Positions 32,160 through 38,906 of a DNA stretch of 64,000 nt are shown here, piece after piece (position 1 is the stretch's first letter; the number at the start of each line of letters is the position of its first letter). The DNA is taken from assembly GCA_043732305.1 (NCBI GenBank), contig JAYTHU010000062.1, positions 1-64,000 on the forward strand, read 5' to 3'. A program made the translations under genes and the position numbers. The notes below the pieces were generated by a model, which worked only from the letters and a program-made list of their open reading frames with translations, searched no databases and was not told the DNA's origin. The DNA comes from Oligoflexia bacterium (GTDB taxonomy: Bacteria > Bdellovibrionota > Bdellovibrionia > JABDDW01).

Positions 32160-32354
32160 TCAGACTTTTTTAACGTTAGTTGCTTTTTTGCCTTTAGGAG
32201 CGTCCCCGACTTCATACTCGACGCGATCGCCTTCTTTGGGCTCTTCTCCGCCTGGCAAATCTGACGAGTGAAGAAAAATATCTTCTCCGTCATCACCAGT
32301 GATAAAGCCGAAATGCTTCTTAGAATTGTACCACTTGATCTTACCCGTCTTCAT
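32160..32354 (-). CDS. Cold-shock protein
   Basis: GKIKWYN..K.FGFI and DIFLH (RNP1/RNP2); RBS GAGGAG; upstream TTGACG-N16-TAAAAT. Confidence 0.95.
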   Translation of the reverse strand: MKTGKIKWYNSKKHFGFITGDDGEDIFLHSSDLPGGEEPKEGDRVEYEVGDAPKGKKATNVKKV

Positions 32355-32456
32355 TCTGCTGTCTCCTCAAAGTTACAAAGGGTGTTTATTCAATTTTAAT
32401 TCAATTGAATCCTGCGTCAAGGTGAGACGCAGTCAGACAGCAAATCTGGTCCAAGG

Positions 32457-35108
32457 TCAGTAGGTGAAACCCATTCCACCTTTTTTGTTTATAGACTTTT
32501 CATTGAGTGCGCTAAACGAAACCTTCTCTAAAGTCAGCTTGCAGCTAGACCCTAAGGCGTTTGAGTTTGCAGATCCAGTCATGGTTTGCTTTTGAACGGC
32601 GGCATCGATGGCCTGTTCCACTTGGGTGATCCCTTGCCGAAAGCCAGATCGTGGATCAAAATATTCATCAGCGATTGCCGTAAGAAATTTATCTTCATTT
32701 TTTACGGTATAGTTTATGCCCGTTTGTCTTTTTTGCTCAGCTAACTTTTCCAGATACTTAGATTTAACGACTGCTAAAAACTCTTCTTTGGTTTGTGGAG
32801 GAGTGAATACCAGAACGAATTTCATTCGATTGATGAAATATTCAGACAGAGGGTTTCGATCATTCAGCATCGCTTGTTTTAATTCTTCGCCCACTATATT
32901 TGGATTTGCGACAACGGCATCTGCCCCTGCATTAGTAGCAAAAAACATTGTGGATTTTGTGGTCATCATTTCAACCACAGACTTGGCTCGTCCACTCAAA
33001 CCATCAATACTTTTACTCACGGCAATTGTTCCGGCATCTGTGACCGCTAGTAAAATATCTTGGATGTATTGAGGAGCTTTTTCGACTTCGTCAAACAGAA
33101 ACACTGTGAAAATACTTTTTTCTAACTCACGACCGATGTCTATTAGAAATTCTTCAGAAGTCCTTCCGGCGTAATGACTCAAAATGATTCTCTTGTAATT
33201 GAACCCCATGCTTTTAGCATAAACCATTGGAACAAAAGTTTTACCAACGCCCGCAGGACCTACGAGTAGTGCAAGACCCTGAGGAGTTTTACTCCCCGTG
33301 GTTTGATTGCTCGCCATCCTCTGCGCTGTGAAATCCAAAACAGCTTTAGCTTTTGGCAAACCAATCACAGCCTTGTTCATCTCCTTTTGATATTTGGCGT
33401 AGAGTTCTTTTCGTCCTTCAAAATCGAAAACACCTGGGTCAATGTTGTAGAGTTTGGCGGCAAATTTATCTAAATAATTGACGGTCACATTTGCAGGTGC
33501 CAGTCCGGGAATTTTGCTTTGAATTTTCAGGTGAGCATAAAAGCGATCTTGAAGTCTCACGGCTTTGTTCAAAGGCGATGCAATCGCATCAAACTCACGC
33601 GATAAGAAAGCAATACGGTCACGGATATTTTCTGGAAGAATTTCTTTCTTCTTAGTTTTTGCCCAATCAGCGAGTGCTTGTGTGATCATATCGTCAGGAA
33701 ACGCTGGTTTATTCACCAGAGTGAATCTCCTCATGAGACCATCATCACCGCCAAAAGCATTTTGAAATTTAGCGGGCTTGGACATAGCTATGATTCTAAG
33801 TGATCCATCTCCCAAGTAACTTTCGATTTTATTTATAATGTCCGATTCATTTCCAGTCGCACCACCGCCCCGCAATGTGTCTATTTCGTCGATAATTAAA
33901 ATGACGTCACGATTTCGAGCATAATCCATGAGCGCTTTCATTCGCGCTTCAGCTTGGCCGCGGAGAGAAGTTCCAGCTTCGATATCATCAACATGAATCT
34001 CTACAAACTTCGTCCAAACAGGAATTTCTGGAAATTTTCCCTCAGTCACGGCTTTCACAAAACTGCGAACAGTTTCAGATTTACCAGATCCAGCATCTCC
34101 AAGAATAACAACGTTCCGAGACTCTTCGGATTCTAATCCTTCGCGGATGCGATCACTCATATCTTCATCGAGTGCAAAAGTTTCTTTGCCCGCGCCAAGA
34201 TTTTCTTTGGTGTAATCTTTGAACACTCTAAAAATCATATCATTGAGATTTTCCTTGGCCCCATTTTCATTTGTGGCAGTGACATCGTTACTTGGCAAAT
34301 TAGGAGTTTTTCCGTTGAAAACGATTTTGTGTTCTAAAAGTGTAACTTGATAATTGTTTCCACCTTTTGCTTTATTAATCTCATAAGGATAAATTGAAAT
34401 CTTCTTGCTGGCAAACTCAACACCCTTAGAATCCAAGAAAGTAGCGCGGTCATCCGTCATTCCAACAGTCGCTTTTTTAGAAGCTTCAATCACCGCAAGA
34501 TCTTGGATCTCACCTTTTCTGTTTACAGCGAAATAGTGGGACGAAGGGCCGTTAGGACCTTGGCCAATAATCTTAAGAATACCAAGACCGGGTTCGGACG
34601 CTTGATAATACCAATGATGACTCACCCTGAATTCACCGATTTTGTGGCGGGCAATTTCAAATCCTGATGTACCAACGAGGGTAGAAAAATCGAGTGCCGT
34701 TTTCTCGCCATTTTGATTGATAACAAACAATCGGCCATCTACTTCCATAATAGTAAATTCAGAAATAAATTTTGAGTTAAACGTGACGGTATAATAATGG
34801 GAGCGAGATTGAGCATCGGCCCAGTTCATAATGTTATAGGGTGTGCGAGCCGGGTTCACATTGTCGTAAAATCTTTCAATATCGGCGCTAGAGAAAACGT
34901 TCTGCATTTTTTTGCCGTCAGCATCATAAATTTCGACTGTTCTGGATTTTGGAATGATTTTTAGGGTGTTACCATTAGTAAAACCAAAAATGAACTTTTC
35001 CTGCTGGCCATGGTTGACTGCAGTTGCAGATTCTGCAACTGCAGCGCTGCCCGAAACTAAAACTAAAACTGAAATTGATAAAAGAATTCCCCTGAATAAT
35101 TTAAACAT
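32457..35108 (-). CDS. Signal-peptide-bearing Clp/Hsp100-like double AAA+ ATPase
   Basis: Sec signal MFKLFRGILLSISVLVLVSGSAAVA; about 270-aa beta-rich N-domain. D1: GDAGSGKS / LIIDEID / LMRRF. D2: GPAGVGKT / FLFDEVEKA / FATNAG / EYFINR. Confidence 0.85.
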   Translation of the reverse strand: MFKLFRGILLSISVLVLVSGSAAVAESATAVNHGQQEKFIFGFTNGNTLKIIPKSRTVEIYDADGKKMQNVFSSADIERFYDNVNPARTPYNIMNWADAQSRSHYYTVTFNSKFISEFTIMEVDGRLFVINQNGEKTALDFSTLVGTSGFEIARHKIGEFRVSHHWYYQASEPGLGILKIIGQGPNGPSSHYFAVNRKGEIQDLAVIEASKKATVGMTDDRATFLDSKGVEFASKKISIYPYEINKAKGGNNYQVTLLEHKIVFNGKTPNLPSNDVTATNENGAKENLNDMIFRVFKDYTKENLGAGKETFALDEDMSDRIREGLESEESRNVVILGDAGSGKSETVRSFVKAVTEGKFPEIPVWTKFVEIHVDDIEAGTSLRGQAEARMKALMDYARNRDVILIIDEIDTLRGGGATGNESDIINKIESYLGDGSLRIIAMSKPAKFQNAFGGDDGLMRRFTLVNKPAFPDDMITQALADWAKTKKKEILPENIRDRIAFLSREFDAIASPLNKAVRLQDRFYAHLKIQSKIPGLAPANVTVNYLDKFAAKLYNIDPGVFDFEGRKELYAKYQKEMNKAVIGLPKAKAVLDFTAQRMASNQTTGSKTPQGLALLVGPAGVGKTFVPMVYAKSMGFNYKRIILSHYAGRTSEEFLIDIGRELEKSIFTVFLFDEVEKAPQYIQDILLAVTDAGTIAVSKSIDGLSGRAKSVVEMMTTKSTMFFATNAGADAVVANPNIVGEELKQAMLNDRNPLSEYFINRMKFVLVFTPPQTKEEFLAVVKSKYLEKLAEQKRQTGINYTVKNEDKFLTAIADEYFDPRSGFRQGITQVEQAIDAAVQKQTMTGSANSNALGSSCKLTLEKVSFSALNEKSINKKGGMGFTY

Positions 35109-35150
35109 TTGACCCCCTCGAATGTTTTCCCCAATTTGAAAAGTATATAT

Positions 35151-35166
35151 TGCAATCCGCGGTCCA
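35151..35166 (-). promoter_or_regulatory. sigma54 -24/-12 promoter of the exported AAA+ gene
   Basis: TGGACCGCGGATTGCA on the minus strand with exact spacing, 42 nt before the ATG. Confidence 0.65.
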
Positions 35167-35369: not shown

Positions 35370-35385
35370 GGGCATAGGCCTTGCG
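35370..35385 (+). promoter_or_regulatory. sigma54 -24/-12 promoter
   Basis: GGGCATAGGCCTTGCG with exact spacing, 36 nt before the GTG at 35422. Confidence 0.65.
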
Positions 35386-35421: not shown

Positions 35422-35670
35422 GTGGAACGATTATATAGGTATTTGCTTTTGGCTCTTTTTATCGTTGGTTTTGTCGGCGCAGTGTCAGGAATCGAATATT
35501 CGGGCCCTGCCGCAGTCGCCACGGTTGATTCTTCAGTCTCCCTAATCAAGGACGTGAGGCTCGCTCAAGAGATCAATAACCTCAATGAAGGACGTCTAAT
35601 GATCGAAGGTCAAGAAGACATGAACGAAAAGACTTTGACTCGCGTGGAACAGGTTTTCAGTCAGAAATAA
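35422..35670 (+). CDS. Small secreted or membrane-anchored hypothetical protein
   Basis: RBS GGAGGT; N-terminal hydrophobic segment; 82 aa. Confidence 0.7.
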   Translation: MERLYRYLLLALFIVGFVGAVSGIEYSGPAAVATVDSSVSLIKDVRLAQEINNLNEGRLMIEGQEDMNEKTLTRVEQVFSQK

Positions 35671-35712: not shown

Positions 35713-38433
35713 ATGGAAAATTCAGAAACACCCCCCGCGGCGCCTACTATTGAAAAGGGTTATATCCCCACTCTTGTCGAACCAAAATGGTACGCTTTTT
35801 GGTTAGCGAAAAATTATTTCAAACCCGATGAAAATTCGACGGCTCCAACTTTTAGCGTCGTCATTCCTCCTCCAAACGTGACCGGCGTACTTCACATGGG
35901 CCATGCGCTCAATTGCACCATCCAAGATATTTTAGTTCGATTCAAAAGAATGCAAGGATTTAACACTGTCTGGATTCCAGGAATGGATCATGCCGGAATC
36001 TCCACGCAAATTGTCGTTGAAAAAATGCTCGCTAAAGACGGCATCAAGCGTGAAGTTTTGGGACGAGAAAAATTTGTTGAAAAAATCTGGGAATGGAAAG
36101 AGAAATCCGGCGGAATGATTCTTGAACAACAAAAGCGCCTAGGGATCAGTGTTGACTGGTCGCGATTGAAATTTACTTTAGATGAAGACATGTCTATGGC
36201 CGTCAAAAAAGTTTTTGTCGATTTGCACAAAGAAAAATTAATTTATCGTGGCAACAGACTTATCAACTGGTGCCCTCGGTGCGGTACCGCCGTGTCTGAC
36301 TTGGAAGTGAAACATCACGAAACCAAGGGAACCCTTTGGCATATCAAATATTTATTAGAAGATGGCACCGGCGAAGTTTTTGTCGCAACCACTCGTCCAG
36401 AAACTCTGCTAGGTGACACTGCGGTTGCCGTGAATCCCAAAGATGCTCGTTATAAAAATATTGTCGGCAAAAAAGTCAAACTTCCTCTGACCTCAAGAAC
36501 TATTCCTGTTATTGCCGACGACATGGTCGCACAAGAATTTGGAAGCGGAGTTGTGAAAATCACCCCCGCTCATGATTTCAACGATTATGAAACCGCACAA
36601 CGCAACGGTTTACCGATGATTGGAATTCTAGATAAAAAAGCAGTGCTAAATGAATATGCAGGAGCTTACAAGGGCCTCAAAGTTCACGACGCGCGTAAAA
36701 AAGTTTTGGAAGATCTAGTTACCGAAGGCTTATTGTTAAAAGAAGAATCGCATCTCATGTCTGTTGGGAAATGTGATCGTTGCGAAACCGTGATCGAACC
36801 CATGTTGTCGGACCAATGGTTTGTAAAAATCAAACCCCTTGCTGAACCAGCAATTAAAGTTGTCGAAAATAAAGATCTTAAATTCTATCCAGAAAACTGG
36901 TCCAAAACATATTTGGATTGGCTTTATAATATTAAGGATTGGTGCATTTCCCGTCAGCTCTGGTGGGGGCACCGCATTCCCGCTTGGTACTGTGATGATT
37001 GCAAACACATCACCGTCACAATGGACATTCCTCATAAATGTGAAAAGTGTGCAAGTGGAAAAATTCATCAAGATGAAGATGTTCTAGACACGTGGTTCAG
37101 TTCTTGGCTTTGGCCAATGAGCACCATGGGATGGCCTGATGAGACTCCGACACTTAAGAAATTTTATCCAACTTCTGTTCTAGTGACCGGATTTGATATT
37201 ATCTTCTTCTGGGTGGCCCGAATGGTCATGAGCGGACTACATTTTAAAAAGCAAATTCCATTTAAGGACGTTTATATCCATGCTCTGATTCGCGATGAAC
37301 GTGGGCAGAAAATGTCCAAGAGCAAAGGCAACGTTGTGGATCCATTAGACCTGGTCAATGATTATGGCACGGATGCTTTGAGATTCACGCTTGCTTCCAT
37401 GGTAGGAGCTGGACGAGATATCAAATTCAGTGAAGATCGATTAGATGGTTATCGCCATTTCATAAATAAAATTTGGAACGCGACAAGATTTTCACAAGGG
37501 GCTTTAGCCGAAGTAAAAATCGCAGAAAATATTGACGCCACCAAAATCACCTTATCTGACAAATTTATTATTTATGAATTGAAAAAGACTGTGGAAGAAG
37601 TCACAAAATCGCTTGAAGAATATCGTTTTACTGATGCGGCAACGAGTTTATATAAGTTCACTTGGAATGAATTCTGTGACTGGTACCTGGAATTTTCAAA
37701 ACCAACCTTGTATGGAACTGATCTTGAACAGAAGTCTCAATCGGGAGCTGTTCTTTATAAAGTATTAGACACTTTGATGAAGCTCTTGCATCCGTTCATT
37801 CCTTTTGTAACTGAAGAGATTTATCACTTATTGCCAAAACATGGCGAGAGTCTATGCGTTGAAAAATATCCGACAGTGGATGATCCATTCTTTATGTTGG
37901 CCTCGAGCGAAGCAGCGAGGGAAGTCGAAGCGGTGAAACTAGTTGTCTCCGCAGTGAGAAATATTCGTGGAGAGAACCGCATCAGTCCGGCAATTAAAAT
38001 TAAATTTTCCGTGGCCCTTGACGAAAAAAGTCCAACTTTTGCCGACTCAAAAAATGACAGTTTAAAAAACTTGAACATTCTGCGAGCAAACGACTCTTTT
38101 ATTCGTTCGCTAGGACGTGCTGAAGAAGTCACTTATTTTGAAACGATGCCTGAGACAAAAAAATCGGCCATCACACTGATCACGATGGGCTCTGCCCGCC
38201 TGCATGTAATTGTGCCTTTGGAGGGCTTGGTTGATTTCAATGAGGAGATCAAACGCTTAAATAAAGACTTGGAACGAGTAGCCAAAGATTATGAAATGGC
38301 CGAAAAGAAACTTTCCACTGAAACATTCATCAAGAACGCGCCCAAAGAGATAGTTGAACAAGAGAAGCTTCGTATCGTGCAACTTCAGGACAAGAAAAAG
38401 CAATTGTTGGAGAGCTTGGCTCTGCTGAAATGA
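35713..38433 (+). CDS. valS: Valine-tRNA ligase
   Basis: PPPNVTG.LHMGHA, DHAGI.TQ, ATTRPET, DWCISRQLWWGH, KMSKS and a C-terminal coiled coil. Confidence 0.99.
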   Translation: MENSETPPAAPTIEKGYIPTLVEPKWYAFWLAKNYFKPDENSTAPTFSVVIPPPNVTGVLHMGHALNCTIQDILVRFKRMQGFNTVWIPGMDHAGISTQIVVEKMLAKDGIKREVLGREKFVEKIWEWKEKSGGMILEQQKRLGISVDWSRLKFTLDEDMSMAVKKVFVDLHKEKLIYRGNRLINWCPRCGTAVSDLEVKHHETKGTLWHIKYLLEDGTGEVFVATTRPETLLGDTAVAVNPKDARYKNIVGKKVKLPLTSRTIPVIADDMVAQEFGSGVVKITPAHDFNDYETAQRNGLPMIGILDKKAVLNEYAGAYKGLKVHDARKKVLEDLVTEGLLLKEESHLMSVGKCDRCETVIEPMLSDQWFVKIKPLAEPAIKVVENKDLKFYPENWSKTYLDWLYNIKDWCISRQLWWGHRIPAWYCDDCKHITVTMDIPHKCEKCASGKIHQDEDVLDTWFSSWLWPMSTMGWPDETPTLKKFYPTSVLVTGFDIIFFWVARMVMSGLHFKKQIPFKDVYIHALIRDERGQKMSKSKGNVVDPLDLVNDYGTDALRFTLASMVGAGRDIKFSEDRLDGYRHFINKIWNATRFSQGALAEVKIAENIDATKITLSDKFIIYELKKTVEEVTKSLEEYRFTDAATSLYKFTWNEFCDWYLEFSKPTLYGTDLEQKSQSGAVLYKVLDTLMKLLHPFIPFVTEEIYHLLPKHGESLCVEKYPTVDDPFFMLASSEAAREVEAVKLVVSAVRNIRGENRISPAIKIKFSVALDEKSPTFADSKNDSLKNLNILRANDSFIRSLGRAEEVTYFETMPETKKSAITLITMGSARLHVIVPLEGLVDFNEEIKRLNKDLERVAKDYEMAEKKLSTETFIKNAPKEIVEQEKLRIVQLQDKKKQLLESLALLK

Positions 38434-38906
38434 GGACTAAGCTTTTAATCCCGTTATTTTTATTTCTGGTCTGTTTTATTTCTTCCGTGGAGGCTCCGGC
38501 GGGAAAAGCAAAATTGAAAGTTTACTACGCCCATCCCCTAAGTCTTTACGACACCACTCTAGAAAAGAGCGACATAGACACGTTGACTGCACTTGGATTT
38601 AAAGTGATTAATCCAAATGACCCCTCTATTGAGAGGAAGTTTCAGAAGTCACAAAACTTCGGGATTTTTCTGGATCTTGTTCGGTCGTCGGATGCGATCG
38701 CGTTTCGATCCTTCGCAGGTGGCGAGATAAGTAGCGGCGTTGTTTCAGAAATTAGAATCGCCAGTGAATTAAATTTACCTGTCATCGAATTACCGACGAT
38801 GATTTCTGAGAGAGCTTTGACTCAAGAACAAACGATAAAATTACTAGATGATTCAGGCACCACCAGACATTGCGCCGAGGTCTTGAGTACAAAATTCCCT
38901 CTGTAA
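38430..38906 (+). CDS. Secreted nucleoside 2-deoxyribosyltransferase / Rcl-like N-glycosidase-fold protein
   Basis: Signal peptide (..SVEA); KVYYAHP, VINPND, DLVRSSDAI and SSGVVSEI..A....LPVI pattern. Confidence 0.65.
   Translation: MRTKLLIPLFLFLVCFISSVEAPAGKAKLKVYYAHPLSLYDTTLEKSDIDTLTALGFKVINPNDPSIERKFQKSQNFGIFLDLVRSSDAIAFRSFAGGEISSGVVSEIRIASELNLPVIELPTMISERALTQEQTIKLLDDSGTTRHCAEVLSTKFPL

Follow-up and report, generated by a model that had tools for sequence, protein, structure and literature searches.

The 64,000-nucleotide stretch of an Oligoflexia bacterium genome analyzed here (contig JAYTHU010000062.1, positions 1 to 64,000; hereafter the window) carries on its minus strand, at 32457-35108, the gene for an 883-residue ClpA-type ATPase with a predicted signal peptide (P0001), recognized from its sequence, from hidden Markov model (HMM) matches and from a fold search. 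The open reading frame begins at an ATG that is preceded by the ribosome-binding site GAGGGGG (35113-35119, minus strand), and this start is further supported because the FxNG motif of the family follows the signal peptide directly. A later start was rejected on the strength of the ribosome site and the conserved FxNG. Reading the upstream frame likewise gave a signal to two family database entries that seemed to have none.

The motor core consists of two AAA+ modules. In D1 (33429-34256, minus strand), sequence, model and alignment show intact Walker A (GDAGSGKS) and Walker B (ILIIDE) motifs and an arginine finger (R460/R461), and in D2 (32574-33428, minus strand) the alignment shows the full catalytic residue set (Walker A GPAGVGKT, Walker B FLFDE, N726, R761 and R824). 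The ATPase thus has the two tandem Clp-fold modules, Walker A/B, sensor 1, Arg fingers and sensor 2 of a class I Hsp100/Clp protein, and the alignment of catalytic residues bears out the original prediction, made from the letters alone, that both modules have intact Walker motifs. That prediction was also right that the middle coiled coil of ClpB is missing: the D1 Arg finger and the D2 Walker A lie 163 residues apart, compared to 159-164 in five ClpAs and 284 in the genome's ClpB. An AlphaFold model of the whole protein, with a predicted local distance difference test score (pLDDT) of 84.3 and a predicted template modelling score of 0.71, matches ClpA/ClpC structures. ClpA is the best match by both Foldseek (E 7e-31) and sequence (E 9.6e-27).

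Comparison with the known class I proteins places the ATPase near ClpA and outside it. It shares with ClpA (TIGR02639; 6uqe, 6w1z, 7uiv) the two tandem AAA+ modules, the absence of an M-domain and the same catalytic residues, and many members of its family keep an IGF-type motif in ClpA's docking loop. However, it scores 149.6 bits against a cut-off of 993, has a signal peptide and a beta-rich N-domain instead of Clp_N, lacks the D1 tyrosine, the D2 GYVG and the loop IGL, and has a longer hairpin and a tail motif. With ClpB/Hsp104 it has in common the class I double-ring architecture, but not the middle coiled coil; ClpB has no ClpP-docking motif, and the genome encodes an ordinary ClpB of its own. 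ClpV/TssH, which is cytoplasmic and recycles the type VI sheath, offers the likeness of a Clp-type ATPase tied to inter-bacterial attack, but the present ATPase reaches only 110 bits against the ClpV cut-off of 885 and its gene sits among housekeeping genes. By fold, then, it is a class I Clp ATPase, and by defining features it is not ClpA, ClpB or ClpV.

A word-index search for homologs gave ordinary Clp and other AAA+ proteins only (nine others); the family emerged with HMMER. The full HMMER search was taken to its best 150 clusters at 50% identity, from which P0136, an ordinary ClpA/ClpC, was dropped, so that the family holds at least 149 clusters. Adding four genome-derived rows gave 153 rows, some of them near-duplicates; the motif counts below use the 147 rows with complete C-termini and the signal counts the 139 members with an N-domain. 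The 147 rows form one long-branched clade relative to ClpA and ClpB (support 100, FastTree). A family profile finds matches in at least 32 of 401 genomes of the phylum and at least 26 of 205 genera, an undercount, since the threshold was set above ClpA scores and two candidates were scored per genome; the two best-sampled genera searched gave no match (0/26 and 0/14). Of 30 family clusters looked up, four carry an organism label, and all four are Bdellovibrionota, one being a protein of a genome from the same taxonomic family. The 133 phage records gave ordinary Clp matches only (best E 3e-16 among the 10 matches listed). The source genome, G000 (related genomes are G001, G003, G004, G005, G060 and so on), also holds a paralog at G000:C31:36766-39780 (L033:2767-5781) with a dead D1, an intact D2 and no GF motif.

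Across this family the catalytic set is intact in D2 in 141 of 149 rows and in D1 in 125 of 147, and the pore is remodelled. In the D1 pore loop (33936-33974, minus strand) the alignment places Leu382 where tyrosine is expected. This replacement, which the original prediction had pointed out, is a trait of this member; the family keeps an aromatic residue in 95 of 147 members, and a tyrosine in 71 of 150 rows. The D2 GYVG loop (33135-33182, minus strand), also described as deleted, is indeed gone; D2 is 13 residues shorter here than in ClpA (Walker A to B spacing 51 vs 64), and all 153 rows lack GYVG through a deletion of about 12 residues. The pre-sensor-1 beta-hairpin (32961-33041, minus strand; model and alignment) is about 10 residues longer, with 53 residues from Walker B to sensor 1 compared to 42 in ClpA and ClpB; the family median is 51. 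In ClpA, substrate is engaged by the D1 loops, and the D2 loops are most important when stable proteins have to be unfolded (PMC8666677). Because this D2 loop has been lost, the family, although catalytically alive in looks, probably does not unfold proteins with the strength of ClpA.

The N-terminus (residues 1-25; 35034-35108, minus strand) reads as a Sec signal peptide, with MFKLFRG, a hydrophobic core and a likely cleavage site after AVA, and no later 19-mer exceeds 1.43 on the Kyte-Doolittle scale. Signals were called by our own simple hydrophobic-core rule, whose specificity is imperfect, as the genome's ClpB also passed (one of 14 control proteins). By this rule, a signal-like N-terminus is present in 117 of the 139 members, compared to 3-11 of 139 at six internal offsets. 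In many of the 22 members without one, the sequence starts a short way ahead of the conserved FxNG, which is what starts called too late would produce, and when the upstream frame is read at the genome loci the signal appears in 29 of 30, the thirtieth being cut by a contig start. A second membrane segment was found in one of the 117 signal-bearing members, which predicts that the AAA+ rings follow the remainder of the protein across the membrane; an FtsH-like topology was rejected on the same count, as were lipoprotein and Tat export, each of which fits one of the 117. The Sec-type signal proposed in the original prediction is thus upheld as a prediction, and the survey of homologues shows it to be conserved. 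We regard export of the ATPase as well supported, within the limits of prediction from sequence.

Behind the signal lies the N-domain (residues 36-240; 34389-35003, minus strand). The AlphaFold2 model of this domain alone (pLDDT 73.5) is all-beta, a run of repeated beta-meanders resembling part of a beta-propeller. The original prediction of a beta-rich N-domain therefore stands, but not its length of about 270 residues, as about 205 are folded and a low-confidence linker follows. The top structural matches are beta-propellers, the best of which (Z 7.1, root-mean-square deviation 4.0, 141 residues aligned) falls within the range of a common arrangement; Foldseek gave template modelling scores of at most 0.39, which is no clear match, an ESM Atlas search with the domain returned nothing above 0.77, and a Pfam scan of the ATPase showed no Clp_N. 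The N-domain varies more than any other part of the family proteins. One member, from G302 (L064:3289-4119, minus strand), shows ankyrin-like repeats at this position, recognized by eye, and a second copy lies 5 kb away. Such variability, with one ankyrin-like member, is as expected of a target-recognition module.

At its other end the ATPase reads KKGGMGFTY, as originally described. This basic-MGF tail (32460-32486, minus strand) is, from family comparison, likely a relocated ClpP-docking motif. At the site of ClpA's internal IGL docking loop, the alignment shows a shortened loop without the motif (32865-32939, minus strand), a deletion missed in the original prediction, and the four closest genome relatives and cluster P0011 combine the shortened loop with a basic [IM]GF end. 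The pattern [IMLVF]G[FY] was scored at three sites: the loop, where it aligns with the ClpA IGL, an insertion before sensor 2, and the tail after the terminal cysteine. It occurs in the loop only in 56 of the 147 members, in the insertion only in 15, in the tail only in 17, at two sites in 2 and at none in 57; ClpA's own docking loop holds it in 58. Tail motifs number 18, compared to a mean of 1.5 and a maximum of 7 in 2000 shuffles, and all 17 scored for context have a lysine or arginine within four residues upstream. MGF itself is found nine times in the canonical loop of family members, so methionine appears to be tolerated in the docking motif.

The loop motif and the motif at other sites tend to exclude each other (Fisher p 1.7e-6, a value overstated through kinship). 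The tail state needs six changes on the tree and the insertion state seven, and a four-state test of correlated evolution gives p 0.009 for the broad motif and p 0.048 for the strict one. An HbYX-type tail was rejected because the last three residues vary among relatives. The terminal MGF is not a chance match, and on moderate comparative evidence we read it as a docking motif moved from the loop. The suggestion in the original prediction that ClpP is engaged through this tail gains from the conserved tails of the closest relatives, the use of the loop elsewhere in the family and the near-exclusive sites. It is narrowed by the 57 motif-less members, because of which ClpP docking cannot be the whole family's job.

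Which ClpP such a tail would meet depends on the host. The source genome (2.99 Mb, 98.4% complete) has rpoN and three secretin matches; HisD, TrpA and IlvD were not found in it, although each was detected in 14 of 14 controls. We infer that the organism is a predator dependent on prey. Its one ClpP has no signal peptide and lies within a clpP-clpX-lon cluster, and two wider profile searches of the genome for a divergent or exported ClpP found nothing but the membrane peptidase SppA. A further 11 ClpP-like genes were counted in 35 related genomes, 34 of which have the family; one of these genes, in G060 (L029:1348-2067, plus strand; Pfam E 1.5e-8), encodes a protein with a signal peptide and the Cys motif described below. 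An exported motor with a docking tag usually without an exported partner at home points to the ClpP of another cell.

The tail is preceded by SCKLTL (32529-32546, minus strand), a terminal Cys motif, missed in the original prediction, that contains the protein's only cysteine; a cysteine lies in the tail region of 131 of the 147 family members. In the source genome, C-x-x-hydrophobic-L/F close to the C-terminus is found in 18 of 551 signal-peptide proteins compared to 6 of 953 other proteins, and close to the mature N-terminus in 19 of 551 compared to 7 of 953, although this tighter pattern, with shadow frames removed, was chosen after looking, a looser one having shown no enrichment (73/661 vs 136/1385). 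The motif at either end marks 37 of the 551, several with domains of the cytoplasmic type: of the 33 own-genome Cys-motif proteins scanned, 18 have no Pfam domain and the other 15 include DnaJ, SelO, ABC1 kinase, M3 peptidase, MoxR and SpoVR-DUF444. From its distribution, the motif is a candidate delivery tag.

Two other kinds of signal-peptide protein bear on where the ATPase would act. A Lon-type AAA motor with a signal peptide and no protease domain (G000:C31:77392-78636; L034:2393-3637) ends in KPSIGF and is, by its predicted features, a second and independent case in one genome of an export signal combined with an IGF tail; it was not found at E 1e-30 in four relatives. Leu/Phe-tRNA-protein transferases with signal peptides are present in related genomes (E 1.6e-47 in one relative), and those in G060 (L083:1444-2298, minus strand; L084:604-2295, plus strand) and a weaker one in G001 (L019:1473-2858, minus strand) bear the Cys motif. 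Because these transferases need charged tRNA, exported copies would make sense only in a cytoplasm.

Since the periplasm has no ATP, bacterial Clp ATPases are regarded as cytoplasmic proteins. A conserved family with signal peptides and intact catalytic residues should then either do ATP-driven work outside the producing cell or be delivered into a different one. We tentatively favor, at a little less than an even chance, the reading that this is a ClpA-derived exported ATPase that acts as an effector in the prey cytoplasm and hijacks prey ClpP via its MGF tail. The protein would be exported by Sec and its signal cleaved; it would pass into the prey, possibly tagged by the terminal Cys motif, and assemble as a hexamer on prey ATP. 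Six tails would then engage the hydrophobic pockets of ClpP and open the protease, while the beta-rich N-domain recruits substrates. Because the D2 GYVG is gone and the D1 tyrosine is a leucine, the ATPase would mainly open ClpP and feed it substrates rather than unfold proteins forcefully, and the prey's own protease would digest or disable prey proteins for the predator. New elements here are a docking motif distributed over three sites and the case for a partner ClpP that belongs to a cell other than the producer.

Published work offers points of contact for this prey-ClpP reading. Epibiotic Bdellovibrio (B. exovorus) break through the inner membrane of the prey and consume its cytoplasm in situ (PMC11055950, PMC12428579), which would provide, in principle, a route into the prey cytoplasm. 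Acyldepsipeptide (ADEP) antibiotics mimic the IGF loop, bind the ClpP pockets and deregulate the protease (PMC8745299); the analogy with the ATPase is functional only, as ADEPs are small molecules without an ATPase. If the reading is true, the ATPase would be a protein equivalent of ADEPs and would represent a mechanism of predation not found in our literature searches, a ClpP-docking motif could shift from a loop to a flexible tail, and the ATPase and the shared Cys motif would be a concrete cargo and a candidate tag for enzyme entry into prey cytoplasm. Those searches, judged from titles and the starts of abstracts, found no paper on this ATPase family. The words Clp, AAA and ATPase do not occur in the main text of PMC11656739, whose supplements may list the family, and the parts of a 2026 review (PMC13689555) that were covered mention no such ATPase.

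Several observations weigh against the prey-ClpP reading. The motif is missing from all three sites in 57 of 147 members, including the genome's own paralog, and six of the 18 members with a tail motif, among them the syntenic ortholog of G001, have broken D1 Walker motifs. Tests on independent pairs were not significant (5 and 8 pairs, median p 0.5), and the correlated-evolution test depends on a small number of origins, on a tree built with FastTree and on motifs assigned by an automatic rule, which was wrong at least once (P0084). MGF deviates from the docking consensus (L/I/V)-G-(F/L), which binds the pockets between ClpP subunits, and a grafted IGF peptide was apparently not bound mainly in those pockets (both from PMC8745299). 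A D2 pore loop missing throughout the family makes strong unfolding less likely. Searches can miss divergent exported copies, as happened with the G001 transferase, which one search detected and another did not, and no conserved neighbors that would indicate a delivery route were found in 30 family loci with 1.5-kb flanks. The predatory lifestyle is itself inferred. The delivery into prey cytoplasm put forward in the original prediction, each step of which is a prediction, fits the host (three biosynthesis markers not found, no exported ClpP found, other cytoplasm-type enzymes with signal peptides).

The same motif-less members leave room for an exported ATPase that works independently of ClpP, as an ATP-driven remodeller or translocon motor, with the GF motif serving another partner or persisting as a relic. 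HSP101 (ClpB2) of Plasmodium, which bears a signal peptide, would be the model. It is an Hsp100 in the Plasmodium translocon of exported proteins (PTEX) that sits on a membrane pore (PMC7355975). Its work outside the cytoplasm of the cell that makes it, and its use of the C-terminal region to bind a partner, are traits that the ATPase would share. The family-wide deletion of the D2 pore loop, together with the retained longer hairpin, would suit such a remodeller. However, HSP101 is a eukaryotic protein that possesses the M-domain as well as both pore loops and passes its cargo through the pore, and the 30 loci hold neither PTEX-like partners nor any shared partner gene. Moreover, a relic or unrelated motif does not account for its position exactly in the ClpA docking loop in 58 members, or for its re-emergence elsewhere almost only after the loop motif was lost. 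We consider ClpP-independent action unlikely.

A machine working in the predator's periplasm or at the feeding junction, on ATP released by the prey or exported by a carrier and with a self-exported ClpP, appears distinctly improbable. The signal-peptide ClpP-like protein of G060 and the signal-peptide AAA-M41 protease fusions of related genomes would fit it, but the source genome yielded no exported ClpP, and in the 35 genomes a signal peptide is found on only one of the 11 extra ClpP-like genes. TLC-type ATP carriers gave weak matches in three of the 35 genomes and none in the source genome, a weak negative because no control genome matched either.

That the ATPase is not exported at all, and replaces a missing ClpA for the producer's own ClpP in or on the cytoplasmic side, is very improbable: the cytoplasm supplies both ATP and ClpP, and none of the five genomes of this family (G000, G001, G003, G004 and G005) has a ClpA that passes the cut-off, whereas each has ClpB, but the short basic N-region, AxA site and lack of a second segment predict that the rings cross the membrane, the signal is conserved across a very diverged family, and G041 and G060 hold a ClpA-sized match besides a family member.

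Returning to the prey-ClpP reading, a wider version of it is possible but doubtful. Bdellovibrionota predators may export a degradation kit into prey cytoplasm, made up of protease-less ClpA- and Lon-like motors with docking tags, Leu/Phe transferases that tag proteins for breakdown and J-domain proteins, all flagged by the Cys motif and delivered by an undescribed route. Prey ClpP and prey ATP would then do the digesting, and the docking tag would have jumped among three sites.

The ATPase gene lies in an ordinary setting. On one side are an acyl-CoA dehydrogenase-like gene and a cold-shock gene, and on the other a small divergent open reading frame and then valS, all named from their translations; the order is the same in G001, and the dehydrogenase side is shared with G003. 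Foreign origin by composition was rejected (guanine-cytosine content 41.3% vs 42.7%), as was a conserved operon, since the 30 loci share no partner gene. A sigma54-type site, TGG-N8-TTGC, lies upstream at 35152-35166 (minus strand), and rpoN is present in the genome. The same pattern is found upstream of 6 of 33 family loci, compared to 0.35 expected from single-base shuffles; the six include the syntenic ortholog, and three sit just behind an upstream alternative start codon. The sigma54 promoter claimed for the gene in the original prediction is consistent with this recurrence, but the site itself is a consensus match only.

Close to the gene, the cold-shock-type protein (64 residues, by eye; 32160-32354, minus strand) is encoded directly downstream, with a sigma70-like site ahead of it at 32393-32420. 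The small divergent reading frame (35422-35670, plus strand) encodes a protein with a hydrophobic N-terminus that matches nothing in Pfam; G001 has a clear ortholog, and a sigma54-like spacing at 35371-35384 belongs to the reading frame. Right after valS, a 158-residue reading frame (38430-38906, plus strand) has a signal peptide, a terminal Cys motif at its end and a weak DUF4406 match (E 0.044).

Elsewhere in the source genome, G000:C50 (L035:3825-9242, L100) encodes an 1804-residue protein that combines a signal peptide with a degenerate Clp-like core; after it comes a SpoVR-DUF444 fusion, also with a signal peptide, and both have a terminal Cys motif. Two large P-loop ATPases (G000:C113:20432-22882 and C235:3900-6422) have a conjugative look, and we take them to be VirB4/TraC-like. 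In G060 (L021:3729-11055) the family gene stands tail to tail with the lon that ends a clpP-clpX-lon cluster, an arrangement seen at one of 30 loci and possibly due to chance. Fusions of a signal peptide, several AAA modules and an FtsH-type M41 domain with HExxH (L020:2748-7040, minus strand; L023:3463-7245 and L101:4147-8541, plus strand) occur in G005, G049 and G004; the G005 gene lies directly behind a family member, and the start of its N-domain is similar.

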